Assembly: GCA_963841435.1 (NCBI GenBank)
Contig: CAWJCS010000002.1
Location: 736,001 to 800,000, forward strand
Length of the DNA: 64,000 bases
Direction of reading: 5' to 3'
DNA from: an uncultured delta proteobacterium
Lineage (GTDB): Bacteria > Myxococcota_A > Polyangia > Polyangiales > Polyangiaceae
The position numbers and the translations under genes are program-made. Shown piece by piece: positions 7,992-17,439 of the stretch. The notes under the pieces were generated by a model. The model saw only the letters and a list, made by a program, of their open reading frames with translations, searched no databases and had not been told where the DNA came from. The stretch's first letter is position 1. Each line of letters opens with the position of its first letter.

Positions 7992-8242
7992 CGTCCCCCG
8001 CTCTTAGCATCGCTTGCGGCCGGCGGGGAGTGCGCGCGACGACCGAAGCGCGCTGCCTCGCGTGAGAGCGGCTGCTGCGCACGGGCCCACGCGCATCGCT
8101 GATGTGGGCCGGCGCAAGCCTCGACGCGGCCGTCCGGTTTCTGGCCGATTGCGCCCGGATTGGTCCCGAAATTCCGCCGGTCAACGGATGGTCGCGAGCG
8201 CGGCGGGGTGATGGCGCAGGACGCTGGTGTATCGTCCGTCCC

Positions 8243-8893
8243 GTGCGCCTTTTCGTGACGCTCCTTGCCGTGCTGCTGTCGGCGCTCACGGCGTGCGGCA
8301 CGCCGCCCGAGCCGCGCAGCGCTCCGCCCGAGCGCCCGCGCGCGGCCGCGGTAACGCCAGAGCGTGACCCGTGCGCTTCCGGCGACCCGTCAGCGGACGA
8401 CGCGACCAAGCTTGCCTCCTTTCGCGGTCTGCTGCTCGGCGTGCGCTGCCGCGCGGAGCTGTTCGCCGTCATGAAGAAGACCGCGACGGCGCTCGGTGTC
8501 GCGTGCACACACTGCCACGTCGCGGGCAACTACGCGGCCTCGACGCCCCAAAAGAGCATTGCGAACTGGATGGCAGGGTTCGAGCGCGGGCTCCGGCAGC
8601 GCGGCGGTGGCGCCGTTGCGTGCGCCGATTGCCACGCCTACGACGGCAAGCCACACACCAAAATGCTCGGCGAGCCGCGAAGTCGCACGGCATCCGTCGA
8701 ATGGATGACAACCGTGCTCGCCGAGCGTTTCGAGTCGGCGTCGGGCGAGCCGCTCTACTGCCGCTCGTGCCACGTCGGGGGGCTCGGCGAGCCGAGCTTC
8801 GCGCGCACCGTCATCGGGAGCGAGCACGTGCCGCTCCCCCCGGGCCCAGCTCCCGCCTCGATCGATCGCGCCCCCGGAGCGCCGGATGGCTGA
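8243..8893 (+). CDS. Triheme c-type cytochrome lipoprotein
   Basis: Lipobox LTAC; three CxxCH motifs (CTHCH, CADCH, CRSCH), with Met residues upstream of each; GTG start inferred. Confidence 0.8.
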   Translation: MRLFVTLLAVLLSALTACGTPPEPRSAPPERPRAAAVTPERDPCASGDPSADDATKLASFRGLLLGVRCRAELFAVMKKTATALGVACTHCHVAGNYAASTPQKSIANWMAGFERGLRQRGGGAVACADCHAYDGKPHTKMLGEPRSRTASVEWMTTVLAERFESASGEPLYCRSCHVGGLGEPSFARTVIGSEHVPLPPGPAPASIDRAPGAPDG

Positions 8894-8927
8894 CGAAGTC
8901 GACTCCGTGCGCGCCGCGTGAACGCCG

Positions 8928-10379
8928 CTACTGGACCGGCTTTTCGGCCTGTACTTTTTCGAACAACGCGCGCTCTTCCGGCGTCGCTTCCTCGAGCTCG
9001 GGCGGCTCGGAGAAGCGGTCGAGCTTGCGCTCGAGCGATTTGCGATTCACGCCGAGCAGGCGCGCCGCCGCGCTCTTGTTGCCGCTGCACATCTCGATGG
9101 CGTGGTGCAGGATGGCGCGTTCGATGAGATCGAGCTTCGAGCCGATGCGCGACGGCAGCGCGAGGATGGCGCGCGCCATGCGGTCCACCTCGCGCGCGCC
9201 TTCGGTGAGCTGGCCGCCCACGAGCTCCTCGAGCACGGGCACGTCGACGACTTCCTTTTCGGCGAGCAGCGCGAGGCGCTCGACGCCGTTTTTGAGCTCG
9301 CGCACGTTGCCCGGCCAGCGCCGCCGGCGGATCCATTCGACGGCTTCGTCCGTGAAACGGAGCCTGGGCTGAAACTGCGCCGCGAACGAGTGCAAAAGCT
9401 CGATGACGTCGTCCCCGCGGTCCGCGAGCGAAGGCACGGTCACGGCGACCACGTTGAGGCGGTAGAAGAGATCCTCGCGGAACCGCCCCTCCGCGATGCG
9501 CTTCTCCAGGTCGACGTGGGTCGCGGCGATGACGCGCGCCTTGAGCGGCAGCTCGTCCTCGCCTCCGAGCGGGCGAAAGCGCCGGTCCTCGAGCACGCGC
9601 AAGAGCTTTGCCTGCAGCTCGACGGGCATCTCGGCGATCTCGTCGAGCAGCAGCGTGCCGCTGCCGGCGAGCTCGAGCTGCCCGCGCATGCGCTGCACGG
9701 CTCCGGTGAAGGCGCCGCGCTGGTGGCCGAAGATCAACGATTCGATGAGGTTGCCCGGCAACGCAGAGCAGTTCACGGCCAGAAATGGCTGGCTGCTGCG
9801 GTGGCTCGAGTGGTGGATGGCACGGGCCACCATTTCCTTGCCGCTGCCCGTCTCGCCGAGGATGAGCACGGGTGCTTCCGCGTCCGCGACGCGCGCGACG
9901 AGCTTCATGACGCGCTCCATCGGCGGCGAAGTGCCGATGAGCGCCGCCGGGCCGAAGCTGGTGTCGATGTGTTGCTTGAGCCGCACCACCTCGCTCCGCA
10001 GCTGCAGGCGCTCGCGGATGCCTTCGACGATGGGCAGGAGCATCTCGGGGCCGAGCTCGTCCTTGAGCACGTAGTCCTGAGCGCCCTGGCGCATGGCCTC
10101 GCGGATCTCGGCCAGCTCCGTCGAGGCGGTCACCATGACGGCGGGCGTGGAGCGTCCGCTCTCGCGTAGCCAGCGCAAGAAGGAGAGCCCGCCGCGATCG
10201 GTCGGATTGGGCGACAGCCGGATGTCGACGAGGGCGGCATCCGGATTCTGGCTCTCAACGCGCTCCTTCGCTTCCTCGAGGCTGCCGGCCTCCAGAATCT
10301 CGACGTCCTTGAGCTCGCTAAGCAGGTGGCGGAGCACGCGCCGCGCGCTGCGCTGATCGTCGACGAGGAGGATCTTCAT
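8928..10379 (-). CDS. Sigma-54-dependent response regulator (REC-AAA+-Fis HTH, NtrC family)
   Basis: LLVDD...LVDIRL receiver, GETGSGKE, GAFTGA, LLDEI, FREDLFYRLNV, WPGNVREL, GNKSAAARLLG; 4-nt overlap with the kinase stop. Confidence 0.96.
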   Translation of the reverse strand: MKILLVDDQRSARRVLRHLLSELKDVEILEAGSLEEAKERVESQNPDAALVDIRLSPNPTDRGGLSFLRWLRESGRSTPAVMVTASTELAEIREAMRQGAQDYVLKDELGPEMLLPIVEGIRERLQLRSEVVRLKQHIDTSFGPAALIGTSPPMERVMKLVARVADAEAPVLILGETGSGKEMVARAIHHSSHRSSQPFLAVNCSALPGNLIESLIFGHQRGAFTGAVQRMRGQLELAGSGTLLLDEIAEMPVELQAKLLRVLEDRRFRPLGGEDELPLKARVIAATHVDLEKRIAEGRFREDLFYRLNVVAVTVPSLADRGDDVIELLHSFAAQFQPRLRFTDEAVEWIRRRRWPGNVRELKNGVERLALLAEKEVVDVPVLEELVGGQLTEGAREVDRMARAILALPSRIGSKLDLIERAILHHAIEMCSGNKSAAARLLGVNRKSLERKLDRFSEPPELEEATPEERALFEKVQAEKPVQ

Positions 10380-12768
10380 GCAACCCTTGCTTCCGAGTCG
10401 GCGGCCGCCTCGTTCGGCGCCTGGCGCGCGCCGTCGCGCACGATGTCCTCACCGCGCACGGTCACGGCGAAGACGGTGCGGCTATCGCGGCGCTGCGCCG
10501 CGATGCTCCAGCCGTGCGCGCGCACGAGCCGGTGCGTGATGGCGAGGCCGAGGCCCGTACCGCGTGGCTTGGTGGTGTACCAGGGCGCGAACAGTCGCGA
10601 CGGGTCGCCCACGTAGCCCGGGCCCTCGTCCCACACCGAAAGCTCCCCGCCGCCGCCCGCCGCGCGCCACGCGATGCCGACGCGCCCATTCGGGCCGCAC
10701 GCCTCGAGCGCGTTGGACATCAAGTTCACGAGCACCTGAGTCATCTTGTCCGGATCGCAGCGCAGGGTCGCGTCCGCTCCGAGTCCGAGCTCGATGTGCC
10801 GGTTGCCGAGTGCATCCCCGAGCAGCGTTTCCACGCGCCCGCAGAGCTCCGACACCGGCGTTGGCGCCCGCTCCAGACGGTGAGCGGCCATGCGCTTCAA
10901 CCCCGAGACCAGCCGCTCCAGACGATCCACTTCTTCTCTGCCCACGTCGATGTCGTCGGCCGTCAACGCCACGCTGCGGGAGCCACGCTCGAAGACGCTC
11001 CTGAAGTAGTTGATGGGGTAGCGCACCTCGTGCGCGATCTCGGCCGCGACCGTCTCGACGAGGGCTTCGCGCTCGCCGCGCCATGCCTCTGCCTGCCGGC
11101 GCCGCCGCTCCTCGAGCTCCTGGTAGGCGTGGGCATGGGCGAGCGCGAGCCCACCGTTGTTGGCGATCGTACGCAAGAGATCGATGTCGTCGCTCGTGAA
11201 GAGCGCGCCGCCCCGCTTCGCTCCCGCGTCGAGCCAACCGAACGGTTTGCCGCCGAAAGTGACCTCGAGCCTGAGCTCGGCGTCGCTCGGGCGCGGCGGC
11301 TCGTCGGTCTCGACGCCGGCGCCGGTCGGGCCCTCGCCCGACGCTGGGCCCTCTGCGTCGGCGACGGTGGACCTCCGCGGTGCCGGCGCGAGCGTGAGGT
11401 GAATGTAGTCGCAGGGCAACCAGCGACGCACGGTGCGCTCGATGGCCTGGGTGACCTCTCTCGGCGAGGTGAGCGTCGTCAGCTCCTCGCTCAGACGGTC
11501 GATCGTGGGTTTGTACTGTGAGCGCGACCGAAACAGCGTGAAGTCGCTGACGCGCAGCGCCGAGACGACGAGCACAGCGGCCGCCACGCCGCCGCCCGCG
11601 GCACCGGCCAGCGCATCACGGAAGCTCGCGCCCATCCACGTCGCGAGCGCACCGCCCACGGCGATGGCGAGTGCGCAGGCGAGCGCGCCGACGAACAGGC
11701 TCGTGCCGACGCGAGACAGCAACGCACGACTGCCCCAAAGGTCATAACGCACGAACGCGTACAGGCTCGCGACCGGCGCGAGTAAAAGCGCGGGGAAGAC
11801 GATGGCGTCGGGAAAGGACTTAAGGAGGCCGAGCGAAGTGAGCACGCCCCAAACAGCGACCCCGGTGTAAGCGGGCACCATCGACAGGAGGAGGGCACGT
11901 AGCGTGTCGCGCTGTTCGCCGCGCGACTGGCCGTAGCGAAAGAGAAACCCCGCCACGAACGCTACGAACGAGAGCCCCAGCAAGAGCGTGACGAGGCTCT
12001 GAATCGGCCCGGTATCGCGCCCGAGCAGGTAGGATCCGGTCAGCGTGAGAGCGAAGCAGAGGGCGATCGCCTGGATCAGCGTACGGGTCCAGGGGTGCTT
12101 CCTCACGACGGCGACCGTCGTCGGCAGCTCCAGAACGAGAAGCACGACCACGAAGGGGAGGATGGCGAAGGCCGAAAAGAAAATCGGCGTCAGCGTTCTG
12201 GTCGTGTGAACGTTGAAGAGTGTGAGCAGGAAAAGTCCGCTCGTGACGCCGAACTTGGCGAACGCCCGTGACAACGCGCCACGCGGTCGCGCCCAGAGTG
12301 CGAGCAGACCCGCGCTAGCGTAGACCACGCCGCTAAAAAGAAAGCTGCCCGCGTAGAGCCACCAGCCGATGGGGGAAAGCGGCTGGAGGGCCAGGCGGAC
12401 GACTTCTTGGTCGAGCTACGCTCGACGACGGCATCGAGGTAGCCGACCTTCGCCGCCTCCACGACGGCGGCATCCCACGCGGTGGCCCGGGCCAGGCTTC
12501 CCGTGACCCCTTCCGCCCCCACGGGCAAGACCCGATCAGGAAATTTCAGGCCCAGTCGTCGTCCCGCCCAGTCGTCGAGGCCTAGGCTGGACACCGAACC
12601 GCCCGGATCGACCAGGACGCCCGGGATCGGACGACCATACCAGGTCAGCGCATCGCGGACGGCAACACAGGTCAGCGCGACCAGGAGGCTCGTGAGCACG
12701 ACGATGGCAAGGGTGACCCGCGGTCCGGCGGCATGGTCGTGATCGGCTTGGGGCACGTTGCCCAGCAT
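10376..12768 (-). CDS. Membrane sensor histidine kinase (TM + PDZ-like loop + multi-TM + GAF-like + HisKA/HATPase), one frameshift near 12416
   Basis: The 12190..12768 frame gives TM1 and a PDZ-like stretch (AGRRLGLKFPDRVL...VVER). After a missing base it continues LDQEVVRLALQPLSPIGWWLYAG into 10376..12328, with several TM helices, F-x-x-DDIDLLRTIA, AHEVRYP, NLMSNA, DEGPG, TTKPRGTGLGL. AGGAG RBS upstream. Confidence 0.9.
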
Positions 12769-12786
12769 ACGCGCGCTCCTGCACGC

Positions 12787-12814
12787 CTTCTAGCCGAGCA
12801 CGAATGGGCGTCAA
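12787..12814 (-). promoter_or_regulatory. Putative sigma-70-like promoter for the kinase/regulator pair
   Basis: Minus strand TTGACG-N16-TAGAAG in the 47-bp gap between the S8 stop and the kinase ATG, followed by AGGAG. Confidence 0.45.
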
Positions 12815-12815
12815 T

Positions 12816-14693
12816 TCAGCCCGATCCGGCTCTCAAAGAGCCCGGGTCGGCCGGTCGCTCTGCCTCGCTGGCCGGGACGACTCCGGAGCGGTGCGCTTGG
12901 GTGTTTGGCGCTCGCCCCCACTCGGCCGCGTCGACGAGCTGCCGGAGGATGGCCTCTTCGAGGGCACCCTCAGCCTCCGCCGACGAGCGGGCGCGCAGCG
13001 CCACCTCGAGGCCCAAGAGAGCCTCCTTTCGCGTGCCGCTCGGGTCCGCGTCGGAAAGGACGCGCAGCAATAGCCCGAGCTGCCGGAGCAGGTGGCCCCG
13101 AGGCTGAACGCCGAGCCGTTCCGGATGCCGCGCCCAGACTCGCGCCGCGCGCAGCATGCTCGCGAGCGCGTGGGCCGCGGTCGAATCGCGCATGATGACG
13201 CAAACCGCAAATTGCCACACCGCCCGCGACGTACCCGGGGCAAGCGGGGCGCCACGCGACGCTTCGACGAAAGCCCGGGCAGCGTGGTGTTCTCCCATGC
13301 GCACGAGTGAGAGGGCCACGGGGTCGGTCGCGGCAAGGCAAGCGGTGGTCGCGCTCAAGCGGCCGTACCCGTGCTTGGCATTGTGGCCGTCGTCATCGCT
13401 GCCCAGGGGCTCGAAGTCGCGGCGATCGGCGAGCCCGTGCTCAAAAGCTCGCCCCGACGGATCGAGAGCAACGCTCGTTTCACGGAGCAAGCAATCCACG
13501 TCGGGCAAAGTGAGCAGCGGATTCGTCGCAAGCAGGAGCAGGAAGACACCACTCGCGACGCCGGACGCGCCGCTGGACTCCGCGTGCCATGCCCGCTCCT
13601 CTTCAGCGAACGGGTAGGCCATGTCGTCGCCCGGAGCGAGGAAGCGCACCGACGGACCGCGATTCGCGAATGGCCTCAGGCGCCCGCGTCGGTCGAGCCA
13701 GAGGAACCAGCCACCGTCGCGGGCGCTCGGCCCGATGCAGAATACGCGAGGATCGGCCGCGGGCTCACCCAGGCCGAGGCTGAGGCTCGAATGGACCGAA
13801 TCGTGTGGGCTCGACATCTCGCGGCCCGTGGGCATCACGACGACGGTGCCGCGTCCGCCGCGCCCAACGCGCACCGCGAGCTCGAGCGCGTCGTCGAGCA
13901 TGGGGCTGGTTTGCCCCTCGACGTACGTCGCGCACACGATGACGTCGGCGCCGTCCTCGACGGCGCGCGCGATGGCGAGCGGTAGCGTCCACACGTCGTT
14001 GCCCGGCTTGGGAATGCAGTAGAAGCGGGGGGACGCGTCGGGAGCGATGCCCGAGAAGCGCTTCCCGTTCGCAGCCGTCGCTCCTACCGCCCAGCCGAGC
14101 ATCAGTGCGGCGTGCGAGTGCGACCGCGGTATCGCAGCGACGGCGACGGGCACCTCCGCCTCGAGCGGGATGCGCTCGAGTTCGAGCCCGTCGTTGTCGA
14201 TCACCGCGAGTCGCGTGCCAGCACCGGTCCCGCAAAAGCGGCGGTTAACGTCCGCACCCTTCGCCCGAAGGAACCAGCGCCAGGGCGTGTCGGCTTCGAC
14301 GAGCTCCGTTGGCCCGCGCGCGGGCCAGTCGCGCGCTTGTCGTCGGGCGCGCGTCACGCAGAAATCGAGGCGCGGGGGAAGGGTCTGCGTGCCGCGCCTC
14401 GCCGAGGTGACGTAGCGCACGCGAGCGGAGCCTAGACGGCGAGATACCTCCCGGCGATCGAGCTTCTTCGAAGACTCGACCCGCGTCCAAAAGATCGGGT
14501 GATTGCTGAACAGGGGCGTCACTGCAACGTCGGGGGCGAGGTCCGAAAGCGCGCGAGTGACCTCCACGGGATCGATGTCCTCGCAGGTCGCAACGACGAG
14601 GTCCTGCTCCGGTTGGCCCTCGTCGCCACCCCCATCGGGATCGGCGCGTAGTCGAAGTCCCAACTCGGGTCCGGGTCCGCCCGCGCCGCTCAC
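12816..14693 (-). CDS. S8 (subtilisin-like) serine peptidase, divergent
   Basis: GAGTRLAVIDND (Asp), HSHAALMLG (His), FLAPGDD...ESSGASG (Ser), HNAKHGYGRL. GTG start at 14693 overlaps the upstream TGA (GTGA); the track's 15302 start lies inside the upstream gene. Confidence 0.82.
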   Translation of the reverse strand: MSGAGGPGPELGLRLRADPDGGGDEGQPEQDLVVATCEDIDPVEVTRALSDLAPDVAVTPLFSNHPIFWTRVESSKKLDRREVSRRLGSARVRYVTSARRGTQTLPPRLDFCVTRARRQARDWPARGPTELVEADTPWRWFLRAKGADVNRRFCGTGAGTRLAVIDNDGLELERIPLEAEVPVAVAAIPRSHSHAALMLGWAVGATAANGKRFSGIAPDASPRFYCIPKPGNDVWTLPLAIARAVEDGADVIVCATYVEGQTSPMLDDALELAVRVGRGGRGTVVVMPTGREMSSPHDSVHSSLSLGLGEPAADPRVFCIGPSARDGGWFLWLDRRGRLRPFANRGPSVRFLAPGDDMAYPFAEEERAWHAESSGASGVASGVFLLLLATNPLLTLPDVDCLLRETSVALDPSGRAFEHGLADRRDFEPLGSDDDGHNAKHGYGRLSATTACLAATDPVALSLVRMGEHHAARAFVEASRGAPLAPGTSRAVWQFAVCVIMRDSTAAHALASMLRAARVWARHPERLGVQPRGHLLRQLGLLLRVLSDADPSGTRKEALLGLEVALRARSSAEAEGALEEAILRQLVDAAEWGRAPNTQAHRSGVVPASEAERPADPGSLRAGSG

Positions 14694-15655
14694 GTCAGCA
14701 CCTCGGCCGCCCACGAGCCGAGCTTGATGGCGCGCACGACGTACCCGGCGTGGCGATCTTCCAGCGGCAAAAGGGCGTCGAGGCGGACTTGGCGTTGCTC
14801 TGCCCAGCGAGCGAGCGTGTCGGCGCCGAGCGCTCGTGCGTGGCGCCAGGCGGTTCGGTACTGATGCCGTGCGTCCCGCAACATCAGGTACAAGACACGC
14901 ATCCCTAGCACCCGGCGGCGAACGATGTCGGGCTCCGTGGGGCGCTCGTTTTTGGGGTCCTGTTTCACTGCCTCGAGCCGCCGCCTCGCGAGCGATACCG
15001 CCCACGCGCCGCCGCCGCGCCGCCAATCGTCCTCCCAGTCCCCGGCATCGTCCTCGAACTGGAGGCCGAGCCAGACACCCGCGAGCAGGCGGTGGACCTG
15101 CTCGACCTGAATGGGAGAGGCACCCGACGCGCGAGCCAGCGCGAGCGTGGCCGGAAAGCCAACTGCCTGTTTCGCGAGTGAGATGCGCCGATAGTCGCCG
15201 AACGTGACGGCAGCGATGCGACTCAGTAGGGCGTGCTCTTCGAGGATTGCCTCGCTGGTTTCTCGGTCTGCCGCTTCCGCGAGCGCCACGGTGTCCGGGC
15301 ACAGCTCCGCCAACAATCGATCGCGACCGCTCCGGAGCTCGGCAAGGAGCAAGAGCAGCTCCGGGGTGGGACTGATTTGCCGGTCGGCGACGCGGTCCGT
15401 GCCGAATGCTTCGATGACCGACAAGGCGTGTGCAAGCACGGCAAGACGGACGTGCTCGGGGCGCGCCATGGGGAACGCCTCGGCGACCAAGCTCGGCGCC
15501 TCGAGCGTTACCGCGTGGTTGAAGACATCGCTCCAGGCCTTACCGCTGACCGGGGCGAGCCCCAACAAATGCGGAAGGTCGCGGGCAATCCCGCGCAGTG
15601 CAGGAGGTAGCGCATTCGCGTAGCCCGCGTAGAGCGCGTCTATCATGGATGTCAT
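14690..15655 (-). CDS. Class I isoprenoid-synthase-fold protein (polyprenyl synthetase/ComQ-like prenyltransferase)
   Basis: FARM-like AHALSVIEAFGTDRVADRQ, KT-like DYRRISLAKQA, SARM-like GLQFEDDAGDWEDD; predicted all-helical. Confidence 0.78.
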   Translation of the reverse strand: MTSMIDALYAGYANALPPALRGIARDLPHLLGLAPVSGKAWSDVFNHAVTLEAPSLVAEAFPMARPEHVRLAVLAHALSVIEAFGTDRVADRQISPTPELLLLLAELRSGRDRLLAELCPDTVALAEAADRETSEAILEEHALLSRIAAVTFGDYRRISLAKQAVGFPATLALARASGASPIQVEQVHRLLAGVWLGLQFEDDAGDWEDDWRRGGGAWAVSLARRRLEAVKQDPKNERPTEPDIVRRRVLGMRVLYLMLRDARHQYRTAWRHARALGADTLARWAEQRQVRLDALLPLEDRHAGYVVRAIKLGSWAAEVLT

Positions 15656-15715
15656 CGAGGGAGACGATTCGGTCCGAGGAAAGTTGTCCCCCCCTCGGTG
15701 AGCGCGCTCAATCAG

Positions 15716-16036
15716 TCAGTAGCCGTTCGACTCCTTCCAGGGAGAGATCGCGACGTTGATCCGCTCGTTGACGACGATGCTCCGCCAGAGAACCACCTGG
15801 GCGGCGCTGAGCTCCTCGAAGTCACCGCAGACCCAGTCCGTGATGCGGGCGTTCAATTGCGCGCGCACGCGACGTGCGTCGTCGTTCTCTTCGGTGGCGT
15901 CTTCGGTCGTAGGATAAAGAGCGAGCAGCTGCTTGAATTCGTCGAAGCGGTTCTGATCTTCCAAAAGTGAAATGTAGAGGCGGCGAAGCTGAGCGTGGGG
16001 GTCGGTGGCGTGCATTTGGGTAGCGACGGCGGTCAT
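15716..16036 (-). CDS. 106-aa small protein, candidate precursor peptide ending ...VAISPWKESNGY
   Basis: ATG at 16036 preceded by AAGGAG; non-shadow amino-acid composition; first gene of the co-oriented cluster. Confidence 0.8.
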   Translation of the reverse strand: MTAVATQMHATDPHAQLRRLYISLLEDQNRFDEFKQLLALYPTTEDATEENDDARRVRAQLNARITDWVCGDFEELSAAQVVLWRSIVVNERINVAISPWKESNGY

Positions 16037-16097
16037 TGGGTGGTTTTTCTCCTTGATGCATGCGGGTGAGAGCCCGCACTGCTGGCCCCCCCAGACG

Positions 16098-16113
16098 TGC
16101 AAGGATCGTGCAC
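16098..16113 (-). promoter_or_regulatory. Sigma-54 (-24/-12)-like promoter upstream of the peptide gene
   Basis: Minus strand GTGCACG-ATCC-TTGCA against consensus TGGCACG-N4-TTGCW: correct spacing, but TG replaces the conserved GG; about 62 nt upstream of the ATG. Confidence 0.55.
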
Positions 16114-16177
16114 ACGTCGTGACCTCCAGGAAGCACCCGCATTTGCGCGGATCGCGTCGCGCGCGCCGGTTGACGCT

Positions 16178-16214
16178 GGTCGGATCCGGCCAAGCGCGGG
16201 GTCGGATCCGGCCA
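16178..16214. promoter_or_regulatory. Two identical 15-bp near-palindromic boxes (GGTCGGATCCGGCCA), 22-bp period; candidate enhancer (UAS)
   Basis: Copies at 16178-16192 and 16200-16214 with palindromic core CGGATCCG; about 90-125 bp upstream of the inferred sigma-54 start site. Confidence 0.65.
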
Positions 16215-16267
16215 CTCGTCGCCGCATCGCAACGTCGCTACGCTCGCGTGCGAGTCAGCGCGTGCCG

Positions 16268-16576
16268 ATGCCCGTCCTGTTGTTCGTCTACGGATCCCTC
16301 ATGCGTGGGGGGAAACATCACGCCGAGCTCGCCGATGCGCGTTTCGTCGGGCCAGCTGCGACCGAGCGCCGTTGCGGCGTCGTGCGGGTCGCGGAGTATC
16401 CGGCGCTCGTGCCCGGAAACGACGTAGTCCCCGGAGAGCTCTACGAAATCGACGAGACGAGCTTGCTCGCGCTCGATGCTTTCGAGGGCGAAATGTACCG
16501 TCGCGACACCGTAGCGCTCGACGACGGCCGCGTGGTGCTGGCCTATGTTCTCGCCGCCGCCGCGGGGCCGTATTAG
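16268..16576 (+). CDS. Gamma-glutamylcyclotransferase (GGCT/AIG2-like) family protein
   Basis: [26 protein letters not shown]-x-x-Y-x-R motifs. Confidence 0.88.
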
Positions 16577-16586
16577 GCCCTCACCC

Positions 16587-17439
16587 ATGAGGCTGATTCG
16601 CTTCGGCGCTCCCGGTAACGAGCGTCCCGGCGTGCTCGTTGGGGGCGATCGGCGCGACGTTTCCGAGGTATTTCGCGACTGGGATCGCGACTTCTTCGAG
16701 AGCGACGGGCTTGCGCAACTTGCGCAGCTTCTCGCACGCAGCGTCGCGACGTTGCCCGTCGTCGATGCGTCCGAGCGCTGGGCGTCGTGCGTGGCGCGAC
16801 CCGGCAAGGTGCTCTGCATCGGGCTCAACTATCGCGACCACGCGCGCGAGTCGGGTGCGGAGCTTCCCAAGGAGCCGGTGCTGTTCCTCAAGGCCGCCAA
16901 CACCGTCGTCGGTCCGTACGACGACGTTCAGGATTCCGCGCAGCAGCGCGAAGACGGATTGGGAGGTCGAGCTCGGCGTCGTCGTCGGCAAGCGTGCTCG
17001 CTACGTGCCTTCGGCGAGCGCGGCCCTCGAGCACGTCGCAGGCTACACGATCTCGCACGATGTCTCCGAGCGCGAGTTCCAGCTCGAGCGCGGTGGGCAG
17101 TGGACGAAGGGGAAGTCGTGCGACACCTTCAATCCGCTCGGGCCGTACCTGGCCACGCCTGACGAGGTGGGCGATCCTCAGGCTCTCGCGCTCGGTCTCG
17201 ACGTGAACGGCGTGCGCCGCCAGTCCGGAAATACGCGGGATATGGCGTTCGGGGTGGCCGAAATCGTTCGCTACGTGTCCGAGTTCATGACGCTCGAGGG
17301 CGGCGACGTCATCAGCACGGGGACGCCGGCGGGCGTCGGGCTCGGCATGAAGCCGCCCGTCTACCTGAAGAACGGCGACGTGTGCGAGCTGTTCGTGGAA
17401 AAGCTCGGCACCCAGCGCCAAACGTTTCGGAGCGAGTGA
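16587..17439 (+). CDS. Fumarylacetoacetate hydrolase family protein, one +1 frameshift near 16931
   Basis: [17 protein letters not shown] in the first frame; [32 protein letters not shown] in the second; deleting one G of GG restores DDVQIPR. Confidence 0.9.

Follow-up and report, generated by a model that had tools for sequence, protein, structure and literature searches.

The region upstream of the P0001 gene in an uncultured Polyangiaceae genome probably constitutes a dedicated sigma-54 enhancer–promoter unit that is activated by the regulator encoded at the same locus and that feeds back on the operon of this regulator. The unit lies in a 64-kb stretch of DNA (G000:C2:736001-800000), hereafter called the window, and combines two near-palindromic boxes with a −24/−12 element (Table 1). 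These sequence elements, their conservation, the fixed and helically phased spacing between them, their single occurrence in the genome and their joint inheritance with a kinase–activator gene pair are directly observed.

Table 1. Features of the P0001 locus, in window coordinates
Feature	Coordinates	Strand or position	Basis or remark
Activator gene, NtrC-type sigma-54 activator, presumed box binder	8928..10379	minus	receiver, AAA+ with GAFTGA, HTH_8
Membrane sensor histidine kinase gene	10376..12768	minus	polytopic N-terminus, GAF-like, H-box, HATPase
S8/mycosin-like protease gene, divergent in sequence, optional operon member	12816..14693	minus	hits below curated cut-offs
Gene for 321-aa protein with class I isoprenoid (polyprenyl) synthase fold, predicted partner of P0001	14690..15655	minus	structure model
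First gene, P0001, 106 aa, no family match	15716..16036	minus	conserved protein
Ribosome-binding site AAGGAG	16049-16054	minus	upstream of ATG 16036
Inverted repeat TGCGGG-CTCTCA-CCCGCA in 5′ UTR	16061..16078	minus	just before ribosome-binding site
G7 run	16086..16092	minus	spans about −5 to +2; predicted start near 16087
Sigma-54-type −24/−12 element GTGCACG-ATCC-TTGCA	16098..16113	minus	sequence and homologous loci
A/T-enriched patch	16122..16152	about −35 to −65	candidate bend or IHF-type site
Proximal enhancer box (candidate)	16177..16192	center about −97.5 from predicted start	exact 15-mer
Distal enhancer box (candidate)	16199..16214	center about −119.5 from predicted start	exact 15-mer

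A tandem box pair confined to one locus

The 15-mer GGTCGGATCCGGCCA occurs at 16178-16192 and again at 16200-16214 on the plus strand, with a start-to-start distance of 22 bp, and each copy forms the core of a 16-bp near-palindrome which reads TGGnCGGATCCGnCCA on the operon (minus) strand. The original prediction of two nearly palindromic 15-bp boxes at a distance of 22 bp is thereby confirmed for both copies, and its placement of the pair also holds, the boxes lying 65-101 bp upstream of the −24 G. On the operon strand, the proximal box corresponds to TGGCCGGATCCGACCA, with 0 mismatches to TGGnCGGATCCGnCCA, and the distal box to TGGCCGGATCCGACCC. The center of the proximal box is located 83 bp from the T at −14.

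The two exact copies of GGTCGGATCCGGCCA in the window are also the only two in the entire 7,783,927-base genome. Six copies with one mismatch are found elsewhere, none of them paired, and the reversed-pattern control returned 0. Less stringent CGGATCCG cores number 357 genome-wide, with two within 60 bp of each other at three places only. When the genome was scanned for 16-mer pairs at a spacing of 20-22 with summed mismatches of at most 5, a check put forward together with the original prediction, a single pair was obtained, that of the locus itself, and no other target; the reversed genome yielded 0 pairs. One candidate for a second target, an intergenic stretch after a Gly/Ala-rich gene with three CGGATCCG cores within 30 bp (G000:C2:832233-832262), was rejected: it is devoid of the TGG...CCA ends, shows no −24/−12 match by eye and fails the pair scan. 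The stretch carrying a further CGGATCCG pair, at C6:884293, reads by eye as glycine-rich codons.

Conservation across homologous loci

Relatives of P0001 were collected from the same genus (5 of 36 genomes), from a species-representative genome collection (15 loci) and from metagenome contigs (48 loci), the sources being labelled Polyangiaceae or Myxococcales MAGs. Identity between the window's copy of P0001 and these relatives ranges from 43 to 86%. Altogether 63 upstream regions were available, 59 of them non-identical, and 51 of the latter are at least 250 nt long; since the loci are kin, such counts overstate independence. A box pair spaced by 20-22 bp is present in 50 of these 51 regions as compared with 11 of 10,200 shuffles, a frequency far above chance. 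The spacing is 21 bp in 25 regions, 22 bp in 15 and 20 bp in 10, and the remaining region, L058, has a single box only. The conservation that had been anticipated upstream of homologous loci extends to the promoter-like element: YGCAYG-N4-TTGCA or a close variant likewise occurs in 50 of 51 regions, the exception being L072, where the box pair is present and the TTGCA element is absent. The expression GCAY-N5-nTGCA itself matches 47 of the 51 regions, and three close variants were recognized by eye (L030, L055, and L070).

The distance between the center of the proximal box and the T at −14 falls into discrete classes, namely 82-85 bp (30 loci), 73-74 bp (8 loci), and 60-63 bp (3 loci), which are about one helical turn apart. 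In five loci the best pair is found farther upstream, and weaker proximal boxes are visible. The pair thus has the arrangement by which a UAS is recognized, that is, tandem dyad sites at least 70 bp upstream of the promoter on a fixed helical face.

Divergent from the operon, the window carries a GGACT gene with its start at 16268 and, after it, an FAH gene. The original prediction had named control of these genes (there GGCT/FAH) by the boxes as an outcome that would speak against it, and the boxes could indeed serve as an operator for a different regulator: they are situated 54-91 bp from the GGACT start codon, and sister activators (64-65% identical) adjoin a GGACT gene in three further genomes of the same genus (L084, L085, and L087). 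However, these sister loci are without a box pair, and the distance between boxes and GGACT varies from 50 to 136 bp and amounts to 1507 bp in one locus, whereas 22 of the 23 loci with a divergent GGACT gene have 82-84 bp between boxes and promoter. The pair is present in every one of the 36 non-identical loci whose upstream sequence extends over 800 nt or more; GGACT lies within 800 nt in 21 of these and is absent from that range in the other 15, all of which keep the pair. Control of the divergent genes is contradicted by both the distances and the loci devoid of GGACT, and must be considered most improbable.

The −24/−12 element and the start region

The element GTGCACGATCCTTGCA, at 16113..16098 on the minus strand, faces the ATG at 16036. 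Compared to the sigma-54 consensus TGGCACG-N4-TTGC(T/A), as quoted in PMC9765219, it carries mismatches at the first two positions only. Its TTGCA is located at 16102..16098 and the GC at 16100/16099, that is, at −13/−12, ten bases after the GG position and within TTGCW, so that the spacing is correct. In contrast, −25/−24 is TG in place of GG. The T at −25 had already been noted as a caveat, along with a doubt about the reading of this base; the nearest relatives, L036 and L037, carry the same T, so that a read error is not the cause. Matches to the consensus with at most two mismatches number 8 in the window versus 9.4 expected, so that the −24/−12 match taken alone is at chance level, and it is the comparison across loci which rescues the element as a candidate promoter. 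No other GG-N10-GC register in the intergenic region fits by eye.

Of 55 loci, 39 have C at −25, 13 have T, 3 have G, and 0 have A, so that 52 deviate from GG at its first base; the three with a canonical GG in the same register are L030, L051, and L055. The −24 G is present in all 55 loci, partly forced by the regular expression used. Positions free of this constraint are also conserved, with G at −20 in 53, T at −15 in 52, and C at −16 in 44 of the 55. Sorted by first base, NGCAY-N5-TTGCW occurs in the genome with G in 76 cases, C in 34, T in 16, and A in 14; these are first-base totals, as a split into coding and non-coding matches missed the 16113..16098 element itself. Dominance of the G form indicates that the other sigma-54 promoters of this genome are canonical and that the element upstream of P0001 is a conserved exception.

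This deviation raises the question of whether YGCAYG-N4-TTGCA is instead an operator, or a promoter read by a different sigma factor, with the boxes serving some other purpose. Loss of the first G in nearly all loci and the GG norm of the genome favor such a reading. On the other hand, the element agrees with the consensus at 10 of 12 positions with the spacing exact, GG occupies this position in three homologous loci, and the element is inherited together with an activator whose only route of action is sigma-54. A search of 8500-16700 for a sigma-70-like promoter found none. Moreover, there is a precedent for the deviation at −25: according to PMC7910581, 1-bp changes in GG or GC occur in characterized sigma-54 promoters of Myxococcus xanthus. 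It therefore seems very unlikely that the element is anything but a working sigma-54 promoter.

Judged from the position of the −12 region, transcription would start near 16087, within the G7 run. Runs of at least five G residues (nearly always seven) beginning at −6 to −4 are found in 37 of the 55 loci. The G7 run opens 3-5 nt past TTGCAN, is usually followed by CC or nCC, and occupies the same place in loci L021-L083. A melting barrier and reiterative initiation are two ideas for what it might do. As to the 5′ UTR, inverted repeats with other arm sequences were seen by eye at the same place in homologous loci, some of them overlapping GGAGG. RNAalifold, run on a MAFFT alignment of 26 5′ UTRs, gave 0 pairs and no consensus structure, and an Rfam search of 15600-16400 with E values up to 1 gave no match.

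The A/T-enriched patch between boxes and promoter contains a small inverted repeat, CCGCGCAAATGCGGG. Over 52 loci, the A+T content in bins from −65 to −41 is 50-63%, with two bins at 39% and 33%, the genome averaging about 31%. A loose IHF motif is present in 10 of the 52 loci versus 1.4% of shuffles and a strict one in 1 of 52; the IHF-type copy in the window is weak.

The activator and its kinase

The product of 8928-10379 displays all the hallmarks of an NtrC-type bacterial enhancer-binding protein. Its domains are Response_reg (6.1e-19), Sigma54_activat (2.3e-66), and HTH_8 (9.2e-11), and it possesses the receiver residue Asp52, GETGSGKE, GAFTGA, and Walker A/B motifs. It is not NtrC itself, since it scores 348.6 bits against the NtrC equivalog TIGR01818, below the cut-off of 558.6. 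The genome encodes one rpoN (220 bits) and about 40 full-length activator genes; on each contig, the best paralogue of the activator shares no more than 39% identity with it. In NCBIfam, the kinase scores best against ZraS (113 bits) and AtoS (100 bits), and the top matches obtained for the activator include AtoC, although the scores against ZraS, AtoS, and AtoC are far below the curated cut-offs (479, 646, and 714 bits, respectively). The sensor domain of the kinase has no family match.

An orthologue of the activator, 65-82% identical, lies next to the cargo genes in 17 of the 18 loci (the window included) whose sequence continues for about 1.5 kb or more past the last of these genes; the kinase is adjacent in 20 of 21. 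The pair is co-directional and downstream in 14 of the 16 other loci and convergent in L034 and L035. In L059, boxes and promoter are kept, and the kinase–activator pair is not adjacent. In the 1.8 kb that follow the S8-like gene of that locus (L059:4462-6262), a SAM methyltransferase and a cytokinin-dehydrogenase-like FAD oxidase are encoded on the opposite strand. Activators 63-65% identical to that of the window also occur in 7 of 36 same-genus genomes. In L084, L085, and L087 (genomes G030, G034, and G018, respectively), the activator belongs to a short kinase–activator pair divergent from a GGACT gene, and neither P0001 nor the 321-aa gene nor a box pair was found at these three loci. Covariation between HTH and box, where N-to-D and S-to-A exchanges in the recognition helix accompany variant box centers, was considered and rejected as evidence because L030, combining a divergent helix with perfect boxes, contradicts it and because the sequences are kin.

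The original prediction held that this regulator activates the operon and thereby gives rise to peptide autoinduction. Its first part, comprising paired sites, a facing promoter and an activator from the same locus, is supported by the comparison of loci, while the peptide part is not. Autoactivation of the operon by its own regulator is likely. Structurally, positive feedback is plausible in the window because kinase and activator genes lie downstream on the same strand. Feedback by co-transcription would not be general, however, since the pair is convergent in L034 and L035.

Alternatively, the activator may fire the promoter via the boxes with no positive feedback, the kinase and activator being expressed from a constitutive promoter of their own and the inducible transcript ending earlier. 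The loci with a convergent or non-adjacent pair (L034, L035, and L059) retain boxes and promoter, as this alternative would have it, and a basal source of the regulator is required anyway. A candidate internal sigma-54 promoter, TGGCACG-CGAC-TCGC, with GG and GC in register, lies within the S8-like gene (14220..14205, minus strand). This match could represent such a promoter; it is, however, one of the 8 matches set against the 9.4 expected by chance. A separate transcript for kinase and activator is also at odds with the co-directional, downstream position of the activator in 14 of 16 other loci and with the layout of the window, in which successive minus-strand genes from P0001 through the activator are separated by at most 60 bp or overlap, and the minus strand between 8500 and 16700 yielded no terminator-like site. 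Activation lacking feedback is thus unlikely, and a unit that feeds back on its own operon remains the preferred reading.

The genes presumably under control

The product of the first gene had been described as a peptide, a view that the comparison does not sustain. P0001 is a 106-aa protein whose conservation spans the full sequence, 23 columns being invariant among 29 sequences. It has 982 relatives in public data; among the 120 of these listed, none has a Pfam domain and all are named 'hypothetical protein'. A search of the ESM Atlas gave a best score of 0.80 and no usable match.

For the 321-aa protein, searches of Pfam and NCBIfam returned no match. Its structure model (pLDDT 92) resembles polyprenyl diphosphate synthases with TM scores of 0.53-0.69 at 11-18% identity, and the fold matches include large subunits of heterodimeric enzymes. 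Trans-polyprenyl diphosphate synthases are recognized by two DDxxD motifs. The 321-aa protein shows one conserved acidic motif (around D203-D210), and the first Asp-rich motif is not seen among its invariant columns. Complex prediction for P0001 and the 321-aa protein gave an ipSAE of 0.79 versus 0.00 for the best of three controls. Among solved complexes, 116 of 157 attain this value, as do 2 of 215 mismatched pairs, counts that hold only roughly because own alignments were used. Between runs, at least 45% of the contacts coincide, the partner pLDDT is at least 73, and P0001 is accordingly predicted to dock onto the 321-aa protein. The two genes always occur together, the exceptions being L031, where no hit was obtained, and contig ends. 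The pair may constitute an undescribed family of two-subunit class I isoprenoid enzymes.

The S8-like protease gene is missing from 8 loci (L024-L026, L031, L034, L035, L065, and L067). As P0001 is conserved throughout, the protease gene is optional, and docking on the 321-aa protein is predicted, neither a peptide precursor nor peptide autoinduction is supported.

The kinase gene reads in two frames in this assembly, with a switch near 12373-12409 (region 12190-12768), and L036 and L040 each encode one continuous kinase across the same region; either the assembly has an indel in the window's copy, or the sensor is broken. The FAH gene is similarly split over two ORFs that overlap (16545-17162 and 16639-17439) and that each contain a portion of the FAA_hydrolase domain, and either assembly indel errors or a broken gene would account for this. 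Adjoining the activator gene is an ORF for a multihaem cytochrome c-like protein (8102-8893), which is syntenic in several loci. An isocitrate/isopropylmalate dehydrogenase ORF at 6771-7991 matches only the first half of the Pfam model.

Comparison with known systems

In enteric bacteria, the glnA-ntrB-ntrC operon is expressed from glnAp2, a −24/−12 promoter with two dyad sites about 100-140 bp upstream. The operon includes kinase and activator genes, and the regulator raises its own level. The P0001 locus shares with this system the two dyad-symmetric sites, the −24/−12-type element and, presumably, the placement of kinase and activator genes in the same operon. It differs in the sequence of the boxes, the spacing of the sites (about two turns here), the cargo genes, and the lack of the first G in the −24 element. 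Promoters of the Klebsiella nifH type combine a suboptimal core with a bend site, an arrangement thought to block non-cognate activators. A suboptimal core promoter and a candidate bend site between enhancer and promoter are also suggested by the sequence of the P0001 locus; the weakness resides at −25 rather than in the −12 region, and the bend site in the window is weakly IHF-like.

Within the same phylum, a parallel is offered by the Nla28S/Nla28 system of M. xanthus. As reported in PMC9765219, Nla28 binds tandem sites upstream of sigma-54 promoters, its own nla28 promoter included. Both systems employ tandem sites, and an imperfect GG or GC is tolerated (PMC9765219 and PMC7910581). Differences concern the binding sites and the number of targets: these two papers describe 8-bp half-sites of other sequence and tens of mostly intragenic targets for Nla28, whereas the boxes studied here have a single intergenic target in the genome and a strict spacing. 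In its architecture, which is that of classical autoregulated NtrC-type operons and of Nla28, the proposed circuit is a textbook-style and well-conserved one in uncultured soil myxobacteria. What is particular to it is the single dedicated target, the conserved non-G at −25, the G7 run, and the uncharacterized cargo.

Proposed mechanism and significance

From the arrangement of the locus we infer binding of the boxes by the regulator, sigma-54 dependence, the start site, co-transcription, and feedback. In the mechanism that we propose, the adjacent membrane kinase would phosphorylate the NtrC-type response regulator (8928-10379), dimers of which would occupy the two 16-bp palindromes centered near −98 and −120. 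The bound phospho-dimers would then form the active oligomer, which would loop across the A/T-rich bend to the sigma-54 holoenzyme at YGCACG-N4-TTGCA. ATP-dependent opening would be followed by transcription from near 16087, giving a transcript that would comprise P0001, the 321-aa gene, and the S8-like gene and that would, in this genome, extend through the genes for kinase and regulator. By co-transcription of kinase and regulator, the regulator would amplify its own synthesis. The non-G at −25, together with the G7 run over the melting region, may hold the promoter closed until its cognate activator has bound.

A more far-reaching scheme, which we consider quite unlikely, would make the locus a self-contained autoinduction switch based on an isoprenoid instead of a peptide. 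Here, the product of P0001 and the 321-aa protein would be sensed by the downstream polytopic kinase, and the activator would close the loop through the crippled promoter. An isoprenoid-derived compound, membrane-bound or diffusible, would then be the signal, and the crippled promoter (Y at −25 and G7 run) would provide for an all-or-none response, with nucleotide-sensitive reiterative initiation as a possible further element arising from the G7 run and the CC behind it.

For the enhancer–promoter unit activated by its own regulator, the implications are more immediate. In an uncultured Polyangiaceae lineage with about 40 sigma-54 activators, the locus offers a clear enhancer–promoter pair, supported by comparison, for one of them. 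The genes that would be controlled are re-labelled as an uncharacterized two-protein module with an isoprenoid-synthase fold rather than a peptide system. The −24 element is non-canonical in form and has been stably conserved although the other sigma-54 promoters of the genome are canonical. With its defined 16-bp site, strict helical phasing, and single target, the unit would provide a testable case for the avoidance of cross-talk among many activators.
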